Made by a program: the position numbers and the translations under genes. The notes beneath the pieces are model-generated. The model saw only the letters and a list, made by a program, of their open reading frames with translations. It was not told where the DNA came from and ran no database searches. 12,766 nucleotides of DNA from the IMG/VR virus record IMGVR_UViG_3300007747_000033; one strand, given 5' to 3'. This DNA is from a virus. Taxonomy: Duplodnaviria; Heunggongvirae; Uroviricota; Caudoviricetes. Below are positions 1 through 6,270 of the stretch, piece after piece (the stretch's first letter is position 1; every line of letters begins with the position of its first letter).

Positions 1-36
1 ACGGACTTCAGGGGAAAAACGAGTATTTTTAGTCAT
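1..36 (-). CDS. IS3-family transposase OrfA, first 12 codons only (runs off the window)
   Basis: rc of 1-36 = ATG ACT AAA AAT ACT CGT TTT TCC CCT GAA GTC CGT = MTKNTRFSPEVR; preceded on that strand by AGAGGTAAACAGG (SD-like). Confidence 0.6.
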   Translation of the reverse strand, partial: MTKNTRFSPEVR

Positions 37-90
37 CCTGTTTACCTCTTTCTCAGGAAGTTTAGTCTCCAGGATTCCCGGGGCGGTTCA
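1..90 (-). mobile_element. Terminal 90 bp of an IS3-family insertion sequence (left end with start of orfA); the element body lies beyond the left window edge
   Basis: Positions 2-90 are the exact reverse complement of 12678-12766 (checked base by base). The arm ends in TGAACCGCCCC (TG terminus typical of IS3 family) and carries an outward-reading ATG (rc of 34-36) opening MTKNTRFSPEVR, which I recognise as an IS3-family OrfA N-terminus. Exact IS name (IS629/IS1203-like?) not verifiable here. Confidence 0.75.
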
Positions 91-273
91 GTGTTTAATT
101 TCAGCAGAATTGCGGACTATTACGCTCACGCCCCCTCTGAAATTCAGTGTTTTTTCGAGGAGTCGGCGCTGGTGATCATTGATTATCAGCAGGCTATTGA
201 AAATGGATTTGTCCGGATGACGCAGCGCATGGTGGAGATCATGCATGGTGGTGAGGAGGAGGAATATGCGTGA
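91..273 (+). pseudogene. Possible 3' remnant of a gene truncated by the IS insertion; unknown product with acidic C-terminus (GGEEEEYA)
   Basis: The reading frame is open from position 1 through the IS end to the stop at 271-273; the first start-like codon (GTG 91) is the first codon after the IS boundary. No recognisable motif. Confidence 0.2.
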
Positions 274-1198
274 TGATTTTTGCGCCTTTATTCTGACTCA
301 CGGGCGACCGGACAAAGTTCTGACTTACCGGACGTTGCGTCGTGCTGGCTATACCGGGAAAATTTTTATCGTTGTTGATGATGAAGATAAGACACGGCAT
401 CAGTACATGGCTGAATTTGGGGAACAGGTGCTGGTGTTTTCCAAAGCCGATATCGCCAGTCGTTTTGACGAAGCCGATAATTTCTGTGACCGCCGCTCAA
501 TTTTTTACGCCCGTAATGCCTGTTTCGACCTGGCAAAACTGGTCGGGTGTAAATACTTCATTCAGCTCGATGATGATTATCACGAGTTCCAGTTTCGGGT
601 GGATCGCAACTATGACCAGGCCTATTTTCCGATAAGGAAACTGGATGCGATCCTTTCTGAAATGCTGGCGTACTACGAATCAATACCTGCTCTTTCCATC
701 GCTATGTCGCAGGGCGGGGATTTTCTTGGTGACAATGGCGGCCATGCTTCGTGGGTGAAACGCAAGGCAATGAACAGCTTTATCTGTTCGGTTGAACGAC
801 CGTTCTCATTCATGGGGCGCATTAACGAGGATGTGAATACGTACACGAATCTCGGTCGCTGTGGTGAATTGTTTATGACGATCGGTGCTGTCCAGTTAGG
901 GCAGAAACAGACGCAGAAAAACAGCGGCGGAATGACCGAGCTGTATCTGGATTCCGGAACCTACGTTAAAAGTTTTTACTCCGTCATGTATGCGCCGTCG
1001 TGCGTAAAAATCTCACTGATGGGTGCCAGCCATAAACGCATTCACCATCAGGTCACCTGGAACAACGCTGCAGTAAAAATCCTTCACGAAAAATACAGGA
1101 AGAAGACACCCTGCATATCAATGGGGGTGACAAATGATTCCGTATTCGAAAGTCGAGTCTCTGGCAGCGTGCCGGATGACTGCACAACAAATCGCTGA
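266..1198 (+). CDS. Hypothetical phage protein, putative GT-A-fold nucleotide-sugar transferase (DxD-type)
   Basis: ORF 245..1198 in the track; preferred start ATG 266 just downstream of the GAGGAGGAGG run (253-262) (ATG 245 is an alternative). Linear motif order typical of GT-A glycosyltransferases: AFILTHGRP strand, FIVVDDED about 25 residues later, then hydrophobic strand plus DxD (YFIQLDDDY) about 95 residues in. Motif-pattern call only. Confidence 0.5.
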   Translation: MRDDFCAFILTHGRPDKVLTYRTLRRAGYTGKIFIVVDDEDKTRHQYMAEFGEQVLVFSKADIASRFDEADNFCDRRSIFYARNACFDLAKLVGCKYFIQLDDDYHEFQFRVDRNYDQAYFPIRKLDAILSEMLAYYESIPALSIAMSQGGDFLGDNGGHASWVKRKAMNSFICSVERPFSFMGRINEDVNTYTNLGRCGELFMTIGAVQLGQKQTQKNSGGMTELYLDSGTYVKSFYSVMYAPSCVKISLMGASHKRIHHQVTWNNAAVKILHEKYRKKTPCISMGVTNDSVFESRVSGSVPDDCTTNR

Positions 1199-1385
1199 CG
1201 TTCTGGATGTTGATCTGAACCGACTGAAAGAAAATCGGGAAGCAATGACAGATTTTTATGCGGCCATCCGTAAGGGCAGAGCGAAAGGTGAAGCCGAGTT
1301 ACGAGCGGCATTGTTTAAGCTTGCCAGAAAAGGGGATGCCTTTGCTCTGCGCGAACTACTCAGGGTGGATAAAAATCAGGACTAA
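1134..1385 (+). CDS. Small HTH-like protein, possibly a DNA-packaging or small-terminase-associated domain
   Basis: ORF in track; ATG 1134 preceded by GGGGGTGA (ATG 1176 is an alternative). Overlaps the upstream gene by 65 nt in another frame. Contains TAQQIADVLDVD and GRAKGEAELRAALFKLARKGD, which I associate (from memory, unverified) with phage small-terminase N-terminal domains. Confidence 0.45.
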   Translation: MIPYSKVESLAACRMTAQQIADVLDVDLNRLKENREAMTDFYAAIRKGRAKGEAELRAALFKLARKGDAFALRELLRVDKNQD

Positions 1386-1388
1386 CTG

Positions 1389-2483
1389 ATGAGCAGACCG
1401 GACTGGGGGGCGTTGCAGCAGGAGTATATTGCTGAATACACCCGCTCCGGTATATCTCCGGTGGCATGGTGTGAAGCAAGGGGACTGAATTACGCAACAG
1501 CCCGTCGTTACATCAAAAAAACTCCGAAAAATGCGCAGACAGAAATGTGCAAAACTGCGCAAAAAAGTGCGCAGAAAAAATCTGCGCAGACTGCACAAAA
1601 GCGGAACGAAAAATCTCAGGAAAAAAAGCCAGTATTCGATGCGGGCCTGAATGAGGGCGACGCGGAGGAATTTTCGTTCTGTCCCGATGAATTCGGCATT
1701 TCTGACCAGCAGGCTAAGTTTGCGATGCTTGTTGCTCAGGGTAAAAAGCCGACAGAGGCGTACCGACTAGCCGGTTATGAGGGGCAAGGTGCGACAGCTA
1801 ATAGCAACGCCAGTCGTATGCTTAGAAATGCCAGGGTTTTTCGCGCTATCAGCTACTTCCGCAATCAGTACCAGAAACGCTATACCGCAGACCTGGATTT
1901 ACTAGTGAGTCAGTTGATGGCCATTGTCCTGGCCGACCCCAATCAGCTTGCACAATTTCGCCGTGTTAACTGCCGTTATTGCTGGGGCGAGAATCATCTC
2001 TACCAGTGGCGCGATATAGCAGAATTCGACAAGGCAGCGGCGCAGGCTTCCAGAGATGGCAAACCCGAACCGGAATATGGAGGCCTCGGCTTTGTTGATA
2101 ACGCCATACCCAATCCGGACTGCCCGAAGTGCTGCGGTGAGGGAACGGGACAGCTTTATATGGCTGATACCACTCTGCTTGATGGGGATGCGCGGCAATT
2201 ATATGCAGGGGCAAAATTCGGAAAATTCGGCGTTGAGATCCTGCTGGAGGATAAGGCTGCCGCCCGGCGTGAATTGTTGCGTTTGCTTTCTGCTGGCGGG
2301 GCTTTATGTGCAGATAAGCGGCTACAGGAACTGGAAATTGAACGGCGCAGAATGGAAAACCAGAAGCTGCGCAAAGAGATCGAAACGGTGGAAGATAATG
2401 AACATCCCCAGCCTGTGGCGATCAATATTAATGTGGTTGATGCCAGAGTAAGGAGTGATGAAGATGATCTCTCCGACGCTTAA
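1389..2483 (+). CDS. Terminase small subunit (Terminase_2-like core) with N-terminal extension, low-complexity linker and Cys-rich insert
   Basis: ATG 1389 after AGGA (1378-1381). Core region ISDQQAKFAMLVAQGKKPTEAYRLAGYEGQGATANSNASRMLRNARVFRAI fits the small-terminase HTH consensus (L..KQ..F..EY....NAT.AA..AGYS...A.....LL..P.V...I). Lies immediately upstream of the large terminase. Also has CRYC...CPKCC and a C-terminal coiled-coil-like region. Confidence 0.7.
   Translation: MSRPDWGALQQEYIAEYTRSGISPVAWCEARGLNYATARRYIKKTPKNAQTEMCKTAQKSAQKKSAQTAQKRNEKSQEKKPVFDAGLNEGDAEEFSFCPDEFGISDQQAKFAMLVAQGKKPTEAYRLAGYEGQGATANSNASRMLRNARVFRAISYFRNQYQKRYTADLDLLVSQLMAIVLADPNQLAQFRRVNCRYCWGENHLYQWRDIAEFDKAAAQASRDGKPEPEYGGLGFVDNAIPNPDCPKCCGEGTGQLYMADTTLLDGDARQLYAGAKFGKFGVEILLEDKAAARRELLRLLSAGGALCADKRLQELEIERRRMENQKLRKEIETVEDNEHPQPVAININVVDARVRSDEDDLSDA
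1532..1597. repeat. Cluster of six TG(C/T)(G/A)CA hexamers (four exact TGCGCA) at 9-15 bp spacing inside the small-terminase gene
   Basis: TGCGCA at 1532, 1556, 1568, 1583; TGTGCA at 1546; TGCACA at 1592; separated by A-tracts. Coincides with the (S/T)AQK peptide repeats of the encoded linker. Confidence 0.6.
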
Positions 2484-3765
2484 TGTGCCTCAGGCGCGAT
2501 TTCTTTCAATGCCCCATAAATTTAAAGCCTATATTGCTGGTTTTGGCTCGGGCAAAACATGGGTTGGGTGTGGCGGCATATGCAAGGGGATTTGGGAGCA
2601 TCCAGGTATAAATCAGGGATATTTTGCGCCAACGTATCCCCAAATTCGCGATATTTTTTACCCTACAGTGGAAGAAGTTGCTGCTGACTGGGGATTGAAC
2701 GTAAAAATTAATGAGGGAAATAAAGAGGTTCACTTTTATTACGGACGCCAGTATCGGGGAACCACTATCTGCAGATCGATGGAGAAGCCACAAACGATCG
2801 TCGGTTTCAAAATTGGTAATGCGTTGGTGGATGAACTGGACATTTTGCCGAAGGAAAAAGCCAGAACGGCGTGGCGCAAGATAATTGCACGTATGCGTTA
2901 TAAGATTGATGGACTTCGCAACGGTATTGACGTTACAACCACGCCGGAAGGATTCAAATTTGTCTACGAGCAGTTTGTTAAAGCCGTGCGTGAAAAAACA
3001 GAGCTGGCCTCACTGTATGGTCTGGTGCAGGCATCTACTTTCGATAATGAAAAGAACCTGCCAGCAGATTACATTCCTTCGCTTCTTGAATCATACCCTC
3101 CAGAGCTGATTAAAGCCTATCTTCGAGGACAGTTTACTAACCTGACAAGTGGTACTGTTTACCATCAGTTTGACCGGAAACTGAATAATTGCGAAGAAGT
3201 GGAGCAGCCAGGGGAGCCGATTTATATTGGGATGGATTTTAACGTTGGAAAGATGGCGGGAATCGTCCATGTGCTGCGTTTGGGGCTTCCATGTGCGGTA
3301 ACTGAAATCATCAATGCCTACGATACGCCGGATATGATCCGCATCATTAAAGAACGCTTCTGGCTGTATGATGGGAATGATTACCGGAAAGTGAGGGAAA
3401 TTTATATTTATCCAGATGCTTCCGGGGATTCCAGAAAATCAAGTAACGCAAGTACGACGGATATAGCCCAGCTTAAGCAGGCTGGTTTTAACGTTGTGGT
3501 GAACAGCTCGAACCCGCCAGTAAAAGATCGCGTTAACTCAATGAATGCAATGTTCTGCAATGCCAATGGTGAGCGTCGCTATAAAGTTAATGTGAAGCGT
3601 TGCCCGTTATATGCCGAATCTCTGGAGCAACAGGTCTGGGATGAGAAGGGGGAGCCTGATAAAAAATCTGGCAATGATCACCCGAATGATGCCGGAGGTT
3701 ATTTCATCGTTAAGCAATTCCCTATTGTCAAACCGACCGGAAGAGTCACATCACTTCGGATTTAA
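2464..3765 (+). CDS. Terminase large subunit
   Basis: ORF 2455..3765; preferred start ATG 2464, 8 nt after AGGAG (2451-2455); GTG 2455 and ATG 2458 are alternatives. Walker A-like AGFGSGKT near the N-terminus, and C-terminal acidic nuclease-type motifs (IGMDFN, YPDASG, HPNDAGGYF). Overlaps the terS stop. Confidence 0.85.
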   Translation: MISPTLNVPQARFLSMPHKFKAYIAGFGSGKTWVGCGGICKGIWEHPGINQGYFAPTYPQIRDIFYPTVEEVAADWGLNVKINEGNKEVHFYYGRQYRGTTICRSMEKPQTIVGFKIGNALVDELDILPKEKARTAWRKIIARMRYKIDGLRNGIDVTTTPEGFKFVYEQFVKAVREKTELASLYGLVQASTFDNEKNLPADYIPSLLESYPPELIKAYLRGQFTNLTSGTVYHQFDRKLNNCEEVEQPGEPIYIGMDFNVGKMAGIVHVLRLGLPCAVTEIINAYDTPDMIRIIKERFWLYDGNDYRKVREIYIYPDASGDSRKSSNASTTDIAQLKQAGFNVVVNSSNPPVKDRVNSMNAMFCNANGERRYKVNVKRCPLYAESLEQQVWDEKGEPDKKSGNDHPNDAGGYFIVKQFPIVKPTGRVTSLRI

Positions 3766-3767
3766 TT

Positions 3768-5174
3768 ATGGCTGATATATCAACACCCAACCTCGACTAT
3801 AACGATATGCTGGAGGCGTGGGATATTAACGACGCACTGATGGGCGGTACGCTTGAAATGCGCAGGCAGGGGGAAAATTATCTCCCAAAATGGCCTAACG
3901 AAGATGAAGACGCTTATAAAAAACGCCTGTCTGTGGCTACGCTACTTCCTGTGTATGAAGAAAGCATCAAGCAAAATATTGGGCGCATATTTGCAGAGCC
4001 GACAGTATTGAGTGAGGAAACGCCGGCAAAAATCAGGGAATATGCAGAAAATATCGACATGGAGGGGAGCCGACTGGATGTGTGGGCGCAGCAATTTTTC
4101 AGCCTCGCATTTCAGTATGGTGTGGCACATGCGCTGGTGGACTATCCACGAACGGATATGAAAGAGATTCGGACAAAAGCCGATGAAAACGCGGCCGGTG
4201 GTCGTCCGTACGTTACGATGCTGAATCCACGCCAGGTTATTGGATGGAAATCGAAAGTTGAAAAAGGGAAAGTTGTTCTCACTGATTTGCGTATAAAAGA
4301 GGTCATCATTATTGATGGTGATGATTTCGGGCAGAAGAAGGTGGAGCAGATCCGCCATATTATGCCCCGTCGAGTTGAAATTTATCGACGTAGCGAAGGC
4401 ACTAATGGCGAATCTGTCTGGACGCTTCATGAGTCATGGAATACCAGCCGTGATGATATTCCTCTGGTAACACTGTACACGAAGAAAACAGGATTTATGC
4501 GTGGTACACCGCCATTGCTTAATCTTGGCTTGCTGAATATCAAGCACTGGCAAAGCCAGAGCGAGCAGGACAATATTCTTCATGTTGCCCGCGTTCCATT
4601 GCTGGTGGCCTACGGGCTGGACAGGAATGAAGAACTGACGGTTGGTGCATCCACCGCTACGATTTTTGAGGACAGAACAAAAAATGGCCTCGAATATGTT
4701 GAACATAGTGGCGCAGCGATAGAATCTGGCGAAACATCACTTGAGAAGCTGGAAAATCAGATGCGTCATGCCGGCGCTAAACTTCTGCGTGCTGAAAATA
4801 CATCCACCAAATCTGTTGATCAGACTAATGAAGAGCGAATGCAGGAAAACTCGCCGCTTTATACAATGGCGAACTCCCTCGAAGATGCCCTCGATAATAT
4901 TCTCCAGATAATGGCGGAATGGATCGGAGAGAGTTGCGGTGGCAATGTGGATGTGCGCACTGAACTGGATGTATCTGCCCAGGTGTTTGACTCATCCTCC
5001 GCGCTGGCTGTTCAGTCATTGCGTCAGGGCGGTGATATACGTCAGATTGATGCGGTTCGGGTGTTGCAGGCGTTGAAATTTATCGATCAGGATTCCCGTC
5101 CAGAGGAAGTGATCGATGAATTAAAAAATCAGAGTGTAATGCTGATGGAAATCAATGATGCAAACCGTGAATGA
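3768..5174 (+). CDS. Portal protein
   Basis: 468-aa ORF starting 2 nt after the terL stop (translational coupling). Position between large terminase and Mu-F-like minor head protein, and size, are typical of a portal. Assigned by synteny. Confidence 0.65.
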   Translation: MADISTPNLDYNDMLEAWDINDALMGGTLEMRRQGENYLPKWPNEDEDAYKKRLSVATLLPVYEESIKQNIGRIFAEPTVLSEETPAKIREYAENIDMEGSRLDVWAQQFFSLAFQYGVAHALVDYPRTDMKEIRTKADENAAGGRPYVTMLNPRQVIGWKSKVEKGKVVLTDLRIKEVIIIDGDDFGQKKVEQIRHIMPRRVEIYRRSEGTNGESVWTLHESWNTSRDDIPLVTLYTKKTGFMRGTPPLLNLGLLNIKHWQSQSEQDNILHVARVPLLVAYGLDRNEELTVGASTATIFEDRTKNGLEYVEHSGAAIESGETSLEKLENQMRHAGAKLLRAENTSTKSVDQTNEERMQENSPLYTMANSLEDALDNILQIMAEWIGESCGGNVDVRTELDVSAQVFDSSSALAVQSLRQGGDIRQIDAVRVLQALKFIDQDSRPEEVIDELKNQSVMLMEINDANRE

Positions 5175-6270
5175 ACGGCTGCGTGATGAATCAATTGCTC
5201 ATGCAGTCTGGATATCCCGCTATAGCACTGGCGTGGCTGCCAGAATGGTGAAAATACTGAATGACAGCGATGCGGAACTTACTGCTCGCCTGCTGATAGC
5301 ACTGGACAGCCTCGATCCAGGTAGTTTTACCGTTAAGCGCCTGGAGTCACTTCTGGCGAGCGTCAGAGAGGTTAACCGCACTGCTATTAACAGCATGTTT
5401 ACCAGTCTCTCCGGAGAGCTGAACGAGCTGGCAATTTATGAGGCTGGTTATCAGTTAAGTCTGTTTGATTCTATGCTACCTGATTTTGTTGCTGATGTTC
5501 ACCCTCTGGTTGGTATCTCTCCTGATGCACTTTATGCCGCTGCAATGGCGCGACCATTCCAGGGACGACTGCTCAGTGAGTGGGCCTCAGATCTTGAAGC
5601 GGATCGGCTCAGACGCATAACAAATACAGTGCGTCAGGGTTTTTTGCTGGGGGATACCAATGAGCAGATCGCAAGAAAAATTCGGGGACATGTCAGTAAG
5701 GGATTTCAGGATGGTGCATTGCAGATGAGCCGGGCTAATGCGGCCAGCATTGCAAAAACAGCGGTTGGACATCTTGCTGCTACTGCCCGTGAGAGTTTTG
5801 CCAGCGCGAATAATGATTTGATTAAGGGTAAGCAATGGTTATCAACGCTTGATAATCGTACTACGCCACAATGTCGAATCAGGGATCGCCTCAAATATAC
5901 GCTGAATAATAAACCTGTAGGTCACAGCGTGCCTTATTTGCAGGGGCCGGGAAAAATTCATTTCTGCTGCCGCTCAACGGAAACGTTCATTCTGAAATCA
6001 GCGAAGGAACTGGGTATTGATGTTCGCGATATTTCCCCGGCTGAGCGGGCCAGCATGGATGGCGTGGTGGCCGGAGATACAACCTACAGGGAATGGTTTT
6101 TGCGTCAGCCTTACACCAGACAAAAACAGATTGTGGGGGAAACCCGAGCAAAGCTGATTCGGGATGGTGGTATGTCGCCAGATGAATTTTACACCGATAA
6201 AGGCGAATGGCTGACGCTGAAGCAGCTCCGTGAGCGTGATGCACAGGTATTCAGAAAAGCAGGGATTTAA
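5155..6270 (+). CDS. Minor head / head morphogenesis protein (Phage Mu F / SPP1 gp7-like)
   Basis: 371-aa ORF overlapping the portal stop by 20 nt. Contains WLSTLDNRTTPQCR, resembling the conserved D.R..P.C signature of the Mu-F/gp7 family. Canonical position after the portal. Confidence 0.65.
   Translation: MMQTVNERLRDESIAHAVWISRYSTGVAARMVKILNDSDAELTARLLIALDSLDPGSFTVKRLESLLASVREVNRTAINSMFTSLSGELNELAIYEAGYQLSLFDSMLPDFVADVHPLVGISPDALYAAAMARPFQGRLLSEWASDLEADRLRRITNTVRQGFLLGDTNEQIARKIRGHVSKGFQDGALQMSRANAASIAKTAVGHLAATARESFASANNDLIKGKQWLSTLDNRTTPQCRIRDRLKYTLNNKPVGHSVPYLQGPGKIHFCCRSTETFILKSAKELGIDVRDISPAERASMDGVVAGDTTYREWFLRQPYTRQKQIVGETRAKLIRDGGMSPDEFYTDKGEWLTLKQLRERDAQVFRKAGI

Follow-up and report, generated by a model that had tools for sequence, protein, structure and literature searches.

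A TAGT-family glycosyltransferase beside the phage packaging genes and its obligate, often ParB-fused partner

Introduction

A stretch of 12,766 nt from a tailed phage (Caudoviricetes, IMG/VR record IMGVR_UViG_3300007747_000033), hereafter the window, carries a gene at 266-1198 that lies just upstream of the packaging genes and looks like a sugar transferase. The locus raises the question of what such an enzyme glycosylates, and of the reason behind its position beside the terminase. The preliminary description, made from the letters alone, had recognized three elements of a GT-A nucleotide-sugar transferase in the product, had not been able to match it to a named family, and had considered the glycosylation of virion proteins or an anti-restriction modification of DNA as possible roles.

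A glycosyltransferase of the TAGT family

The gene and its conserved parts are as follows.

266-1198 (+): TAGT-family GT-A glycosyltransferase (GT) gene, 310 aa, soluble product
284-310 (+): AFILTHGRP, aa 7-15, first strand and H-G-R-P loop; G13 and R14 invariant
365-388: FIVVDDED motif, aa 34-41
554-580 (+): YFIQLDDDY, aa 97-105, strand 4 and DDD metal/nucleotide-sugar motif; D102-D104 invariant
824-835 (+): N-E-D-V, third active-site motif (E188-D189); N187, E188, D189 and V190 invariant
911-1111 (+): conserved C-terminal subdomain past the Pfam model, about aa 216-282; PHROG 31222, aa 199-280

The ATG is preceded at 4 nt by the Shine-Dalgarno run GAGGAGGAGG, a strong ribosome-binding site. 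The three motifs of the preliminary description (AFILTHGRP, FIVVDDED and YFIQLDDDY) were found exactly where it had placed them, at aa 7-15, 34-41 and 97-105. In an alignment of 25 sequences, down to 59% identity, R14, D38, D41, D102-D104, E188-D189 and H260-H261 are invariant, and the C-terminal subdomain follows the pattern TQ..GGMTELY..GTYVKSFYSV..RIHH. R14 is the conserved arginine of the family, in which phage DNA glycosyltransferases and JGT share the pattern R...DDD...ED (bioRxiv 10.1101/2023.12.21.572611). The GT has this active-site pattern, R...DDD...ED(Y/F), with Val190 replacing the aromatic residue after ED.

The protein matches Pfam PF20691 (TAGT, TET-associated glycosyltransferase) with an E-value of 1.1e-34 and 120.6 bits, against a gathering threshold of 27.5 bits, residues 8-222 being aligned to positions 4-205 of the 205 in the profile. 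PHROG 842 is matched with an E-value of 1.6e-103, and no match was found in NCBIfam. A PDB sequence search returned no match for the GT or for the C-terminal domain of its partner, described below. The AlphaFold2 model (25 homologues; pLDDT 74, pTM 0.74) has a beta-alpha-beta core in which the DDD comes immediately behind strand 97-101, its canonical GT-A position, and the single Rossmann-like GT-A fold of TAGT proteins. When this model was compared with predicted viral structures by Foldseek, TAGT-domain proteins ranked first, and a T4-like 'beta-glucosyl-HMC-alpha-glucosyltransferase' was reached at E 1.2e-6.

The reading of the gene as a GT-A transferase is thus supported by the Pfam score, by PHROG 842 and by the DDD that follows strand 97-101, and the predicted structure, which had been proposed as a check of the fold, returned the GT-A core. 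The profile searches did not lead to an unrelated family, and the family that could not be named before is PF20691. We consider the GT-A identity confirmed, the matches being far above what chance would give: as judged from profiles and model, the product is a soluble GT-A glycosyltransferase of the TAGT family, with a predicted metal dependence. No hydrophobic or membrane segment was found in it (maximum KD19 1.08).

The C-terminal tail (residues 283-310) has a pLDDT below 50 and is predicted to be disordered. About 25 aa long and running to nt 1198, it is peculiar to the E. coli lineage, the relatives stopping at about aa 285-290, and it overlaps the next ORF, encoding an 83-aa helix-turn-helix (HTH) protein, by 65 nt. 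This stretch (window 1112-1198) looks like the outcome of a lost stop codon.

The window and its interrupted unit

The window (12.8 kb) comes from a temperate, Rac-like lambdoid prophage of E. coli and represents its late region. Many E. coli chromosomes match it at 99-100% identity, and it also matches induced phages, such as vB_EcoS-666R9 (ON470614.1). In intact relatives the order is lysis genes, trkG, ParB-like gene, GT, small ORF, terminase small subunit (TerS), terminase large subunit (TerL) and portal, followed by a Mu-F-like minor head protein, scaffold, P22-type coat and tail genes. Around the GT gene, the window contains:

1-90 (-): end of an IS3-family element (IS629/IS1203-like), from megablast to IS629 transposase regions in Stx phages
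91-273 (+): 3' remnant of the ParB-like partner gene, codons 204-263 and stop; window 91 is nt 610 of 792
1134-1385 (+): basic HTH protein, 83 aa; PHROG 309, E 8.3e-23; pI 9.25
1389-2483 (+): TerS; Pfam Terminase_2, PHROG 51
2464-3765 (+): TerL; Pfam Terminase_6N and Terminase_6C, ON470614.1 annotation
3768-5174: portal

The gene had been described as standing at the head of the packaging genes, and this holds, with the HTH ORF, TerS, TerL and portal downstream; it is not the first gene of its own unit, which begins with the partner gene. A scan of window 1-1500 for promoters and terminators gave nothing above the shuffled expectation.

The terminal inverted repeat of the insertion sequence, within window 1-90, is TGAACCGCCCCGGG, as read on the reverse complement of window 1-95. 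On the minus strand, near position 36, orfA starts with MTKNTRFSPEVR and reads leftwards, leaving the window. With the intact 792-nt partner gene of ON470614.1 (L001 19392-20183) as reference, the copy in the window has lost its first 203 codons, with the nucleotide-binding domain and the motif Y-T-x-K-I-x-x-P-x-Y-E-P, and of the conserved C-terminal domain it retains no more than a part. The TGA of the remnant, at 271-273, and the start codon of the GT overlap (ATGCGTGA). Among 5,426 complete E. coli genomes, not one has the junction between the insertion sequence and the ParB-like gene. Since the partner is broken and the pairing is obligate elsewhere, the two-gene unit of the window is probably inactive despite the intact GT frame.

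In the E. coli genome nearest to the window (NZ_AP022069.1, L085 10528-11741), an IS3-family element breaks the portal gene and not the ParB-like gene; insertions of this kind have therefore occurred repeatedly in this prophage across strains. The 83-aa HTH protein is related to small terminase subunits in their N-terminal, DNA-binding part (PHROG 309). Its ORF is always 3' of the GT in enterobacterial relatives (tblastn synteny, 80 loci) and is kept between GT and TerS besides a full TerS of 364 aa. Some annotations place its start at 1176, while 1134 is backed by conservation. The Mu-F-like minor head protein (Pfam Phage_Mu_F; window 5155-6270, +) is called 'NAD+--asparagine ADP-ribosyltransferase' in the annotation of ON470614.1.

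An obligate partner

The intact E. coli partner is a strongly acidic protein (pI 4.4) of 263 aa. Its N-terminal 140 aa or so match the N-termini of ParB-DNA methyltransferase fusions in phage records with up to 56% identity, scoring E 1.5e-38 with PADLOC MTase_II and E 8.8e-51 with PHROG 498. The PADLOC match comes solely from the ParB module, which is shared with the type II methyltransferase model. The partner thus places a ParB/Srx nucleotide-binding domain beside a modifying enzyme, as in ParB-assisted modules. Residues 103-134 form helices, and residues 136-170 are predicted to be disordered, yet they hold the motif Y148-T-x-K-I-x-x-P-x-Y157-E-P, whose second tyrosine, Y157, is invariant from E. 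coli to the haloarchaeal virus HHTV-2. A conserved helical domain follows at residues 172-255, with R201, A211, Y214, E226 and D234 invariant and H202 nearly so. No Pfam family and no PDB relative were found for this domain, and no DNA-binding domain could be recognized in the partner. PF23887 (Phage L5 gene 47-like) was a recurrent match to the domain, always below threshold (E 0.005-0.04), and was not used.

In NZ_CP032261.1 (L203 7510-8301) and other RefSeq genomes, PGAP calls the full-length partner 'ynaK, incomplete, missing C-terminus', presumably a name transferred from the truncated Rac remnant of K-12. We considered whether the 'ynaK partial' labels in E. coli indicate independent pseudogenization and rejected it as an annotation artifact, since the gene there is intact and does not differ from the phage copy. 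On the mechanism of ynaK the literature, which consists of a screen for antibiotic survival (PMC12924614), is silent.

The partner gene precedes the GT on the same strand, and their stop and start codons usually overlap. It is directly upstream in all 80 close IMG/VR loci. When diverse loci were seeded with the GT, the partner was adjacent in 82 of the 86 with enough upstream sequence; when the C-terminal part of the partner alone was used as seed, the GT was immediately downstream in 74 of 75 loci, with 2.4 kb between the two in the remaining one. The pair is present in phages of Lactobacillus gasseri, L. delbrueckii, Porphyromonas and Nocardia, in uncultured phages and in HHTV-2. The GT and its upstream partner are an obligate two-gene unit.

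The ParB domain is missing from the partner in 26 of 175 GT-seeded loci and in 60 of 75 partner-seeded ones. Because so many natural partners are without it, this domain is dispensable at least in those phages; and since many loci carry only the motif and the C-terminal domain, these two are the obligatory part and ParB a frequent add-on. Stand-alone partners of about 120-135 aa, composed of motif and helical domain and without ParB, are found at L136 7637-8008, L182 7613-8011, L162 5302-5706, L086 5459-5878 and other loci. In 191-kb Vibrio phages the partner has no ParB domain either, and the pair lies among primase, exonuclease and helicase genes, which shows that a replication module can also house it. 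A natural ParB-GT fusion, sought as a Rosetta stone among the best 150 representatives, was not found.

Distribution and genomic position

The GT gene occurs in 996 of the 5,426 complete E. coli genomes, about one in six, where RefSeq names it 'hypothetical protein' or 'GREB1-related protein', the latter name being used in UniRef too. At E<=1e-3 the GT matches 1,321 clusters (50% identity). The 25 homologues, with a mean column identity of 63%, include proteins from Salmonella, Klebsiella, Serratia, Pantoea, Yersinia and one Sphingomicrobium metagenome bin, and the identity is 40-47% with proteins of Lactobacillus, Nocardia and Vibrio phages and of HHTV-2 (Haloarcula). As a unit with its partner, the GT is found in temperate and lytic phages of four bacterial phyla and in the haloarchaeal virus. 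Solitary TAGT homologues, left unexplained, were counted in 288 of 753 GT-encoding phage genomes in a 2026 survey (PMC13216743), and a mining study set aside about 65% of its GT contigs, which had no base-modifying enzyme nearby (bioRxiv 10.1101/2023.12.21.572611).

A TerL gene lies at most 3.5 kb downstream in 70 of 84 diverse GT loci, with a median gap of 547 bp. The terminases beside the unit are unrelated (Terminase_6N in the window, TerL_ATPase in L090, lambda GpA in L092), and the capsids differ as well, being P22-like, HK97-type and lambda E-like, respectively. In the cos phage c5 of Lactobacillus, the partner is the first gene past the cos end. Because the terminase families are unrelated, the unit is tied to the slot where the early genes end and the late ones start, and not to any single type of packaging machine. 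ParB-methyltransferase fusions fill this slot, directly before the terminase, in other phages.

Natural fusions give relatives of the GT an additional domain, which may be a second TAGT, a class I SAM methyltransferase (N- or C-terminal), Sulfotransfer_2, or an N-terminal P-loop kinase-like domain with the P-loop GxxxxGKS (P0128, P0132, P0166, P0165, P0148, P0149, P0151, P0191 and P0200). The N-terminal extensions seen in the best 150 representatives are of the kinase-like, methyltransferase or second TAGT type. A radical SAM gene, with only generic MoaA/SPASM-like matches, lies 3' of the GT in 15 loci (for example, L194 8858-9799). Loci of the L192 3901-7154 type combine a methyltransferase, a ParB nucleotide-binding domain only, a divergent TAGT, a radical SAM/SPASM gene, TerS and TerL. 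These fusions and neighbors are sugar-tailoring activities such as those of DNA-glycan clusters, and they suggest a product under diversifying selection.

In the uncultured phage of L090, which also has the ParB-GT pair, four successive GT2-family genes are found right behind the major capsid gene (17837-20316). This cluster is likely devoted to virion glycosylation and separate from the pair.

No pathway to a hydroxymethylated base

In 134 diverse loci, neither TET/JBP nor thymidylate-synthase-like genes were found within 6 kb on either side of the GT, the recurrent neighbors being only ordinary replication and packaging genes. An enzyme that could make a hydroxymethyl acceptor was also absent from the whole annotated 31.8-kb genome of Lactobacillus phage c5 and from the unnamed genes of the Rac-like prophage. 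This temperate lambdoid prophage has neither the 5hmC pathway nor the alpha- and beta-glucosyltransferases that form glucosyl-5hmC. A TET/JBP dioxygenase or a hydroxymethylase nearby, the contextual trait of TAGT proteins that stands outside the Pfam definition, is not seen at these loci. To our knowledge, every DNA sugar modification needs a hydroxyl of this kind, and we know of no precedent among NDP-sugar transferases for a canonical base as acceptor. The enzymes from which TAGT takes its name glycosylate 5hmC, 5hmU, or the glucose on 5hmC (bioRxiv 10.1101/2023.12.21.572611; PMC13216743). The name of PHROG 842, beta-glucosyl-HMC-alpha-glucosyltransferase, should not be transferred to the present protein as a function.

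What does the unit glycosylate?

As the most likely of several readings, though one that we hold with some reserve, we tentatively suggest that the unit is a two-component post-replicative module that puts sugar on phage DNA before packaging. The unit would be expressed late as a DNA-modification module, and the C-terminal domain of the partner would dock onto the GT and activate it. The ParB domain, where present, might engage the DNA, as in ParB-fused DNA methyltransferases and ParB-dependent thymine dioxygenases. The GT would then move a sugar from a nucleotide-sugar donor to the replicated phage DNA, shortly before the neighboring terminase packages it, and we infer that a sugar so placed would shield the DNA from host nucleases.

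This suggestion is seriously weakened because no enzyme that makes the hydroxymethyl acceptor was found, which would leave a canonical base, or something unrecognized so far, as the acceptor. It is further weakened since the partner is acidic, with its pI of 4.4, and has no recognizable DNA-binding domain, since many partners are entirely without ParB, and since one TAGT-like domain, that of GREB1, is reported to glycosylate a protein (PMC7968844). A sugar on DNA without a hydroxymethylated base, attached to a canonical base directly (N- or O-glycosylation) or via the invariant tyrosine of the partner, seems rather doubtful to us; if true, it would mean that DNA, or something associated with it, is glycosylated by a new chemistry.

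The main rival reading, which we consider unlikely but worth weighing, takes the partner itself as the acceptor. The GT would glycosylate the invariant Y157 or a nearby Thr/Ser in the disordered linker before the docking domain, in a manner resembling glycogenin (Tyr self-glucosylation), the SunS/SunA glycocin pair and GREB1. The fused tailoring enzymes of other phages would decorate the glycan, and the glycoprotein would be the functional product. Such a role would account for both the strict one-to-one pairing and the dispensable ParB domain. On the other hand, no known glycoprotein function explains the conservation beside terminase or replication genes, an invariant linear motif equally fits a docking or activating element, and the ParB domain, being of the kind that DNA methyltransferases carry as a fusion, speaks for DNA.

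It is improbable that the sugar goes to some other cytoplasmic acceptor (a nucleotide or small molecule, RNA, a host protein or a lipid-linked envelope precursor) in the service of anti-defense or lysogenic conversion. The enzyme keeps 40-45% identity across hosts with entirely different envelopes, namely E. coli, Lactobacillus, Nocardia and Haloarcula; it has neither a membrane segment nor a match to any PADLOC defense system, and it is coupled into the late operon instead of forming an independent lysogenic cassette. It does not resemble Gtr- or TarP-type serotype conversion, considering the lack of a hydrophobic segment, the unrelated envelopes and a start that overlaps the stop of the upstream late gene.

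The glycosylation of virion structural proteins (capsid, portal or tail), one of the options of the preliminary description and comparable with mycobacteriophage virion glycosylation, now appears very improbable: the GT does head the structural operon, is expressed late, and belongs to the GT-A enzymes, which glycosylate viral capsids in PBCV-1 (bioRxiv 10.1101/2023.12.21.572611), but it is highly conserved although the genes downstream of it encode unrelated families of terminase, portal and capsid, the Vibrio phage pair sits in a replication module, L090 has its separate GT2 cluster in the place expected for virion glycosylation, and the GT, lying upstream of the terminase, has no GT2 Pfam match.

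Comparison with known systems

That phages have DNA glycosyltransferases is known in general, as are the TAGT family and its fold. Iyer et al. (2013) reportedly defined TAGT and discussed ParB in DNA modification. What is new is a TAGT subfamily without dioxygenase or hydroxymethylase and with a previously unannotated, often ParB-fused obligate partner. ParB-like proteins and terminases among the neighbors of mined GT contigs had been noted in passing (bioRxiv 10.1101/2023.12.21.572611). In the literature searched, of which Iyer et al. (2013) is not a part, we found no published account of the motif and C-terminal-domain partner, of the reciprocal co-occurrence or of the function of the pair.

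One large, highly conserved branch of the 'solitary' TAGT enzymes is not solitary, and its slot is the one where phages keep DNA methyltransferases. The question of a DNA-type glycosyltransferase without a hydroxymethyl base is thereby made testable: the unit has two genes and one invariant tyrosine that can be mutated, and ordinary prophages of E. coli that can be induced carry it. A new DNA sugar modification, if this is what the unit makes, would bear on restriction evasion, on the host range in phage therapy and on DNA-labeling enzymology; a glycoprotein product would represent a new phage protein-glycosylation system. The message of the window itself is modest: a widespread prophage gene, correctly spotted, whose partner was destroyed by an IS element.

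At key residues, the GT domain of GREB1 reportedly aligns with JGT and phage TAGT (PMC7968844). GREB1 is, however, a large cytoplasmic animal protein with a reported O-GlcNAcylation of ER-alpha (PMC7968844), and it does not have a partner of the ParB/C-terminal-domain kind. Glycogenin and SunS/SunA, GT-A systems directed to a protein or peptide, have no sequence relationship with the GT beyond the fold, and the corresponding acceptor role of the partner is hypothetical.

The beta-glucosyl-HMC-alpha-glucosyltransferase of T2/T6 has PF20691, the GT-A fold, the use of a nucleotide sugar and the phage origin in common with the GT, although the similarity between them is below the reach of tblastn at E 1e-3. 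To place a second glucose on glucosyl-5hmC, the T-even enzyme needs a dCMP hydroxymethylase and an alpha- or beta-GT, all of them absent here. We know of no partner protein of this enzyme.

The GT-A enzymes associated with 5mYOX/TET in phages and the trypanosome JGT (Burke 2021; Pyle 2024) share the TAGT-like fold and the pattern R...DDD...ED. The 5mYOX/TET-associated GTs act on DNA after replication, have been diversified by second GTs, O-methyltransferases and kinases, and use 5hmC or 5hmU produced by a neighboring methyltransferase and dioxygenase. The subfamily described here, by contrast, comes without a dioxygenase and with an obligate partner of motif and C-terminal domain.

The ParB-DNA methyltransferase fusions of phages and plasmids share with the partner both the N-terminal 140 aa or so and the slot upstream of the terminase. 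In them ParB is covalently joined to the methyltransferase, whereas here it is joined to a putative docking domain for a separate GT. ParB-like proteins are required by a subclass of phage thymine dioxygenases on double-stranded DNA (2026, PMC13229309). In the 5mYOX176/ParB176 system of that study the enzyme is an Fe/2OG dioxygenase and not a GT; as in the present unit, a DNA-modifying type of enzyme is paired with a ParB-like protein without a DNA-binding domain (PMC13229309). ParB176 and the partner have the same layout, namely a nucleotide-binding domain, short helices, a disordered linker of about 50 aa and a C-terminal domain, and in the NTP site of both, Q is replaced by N and E by H/D.
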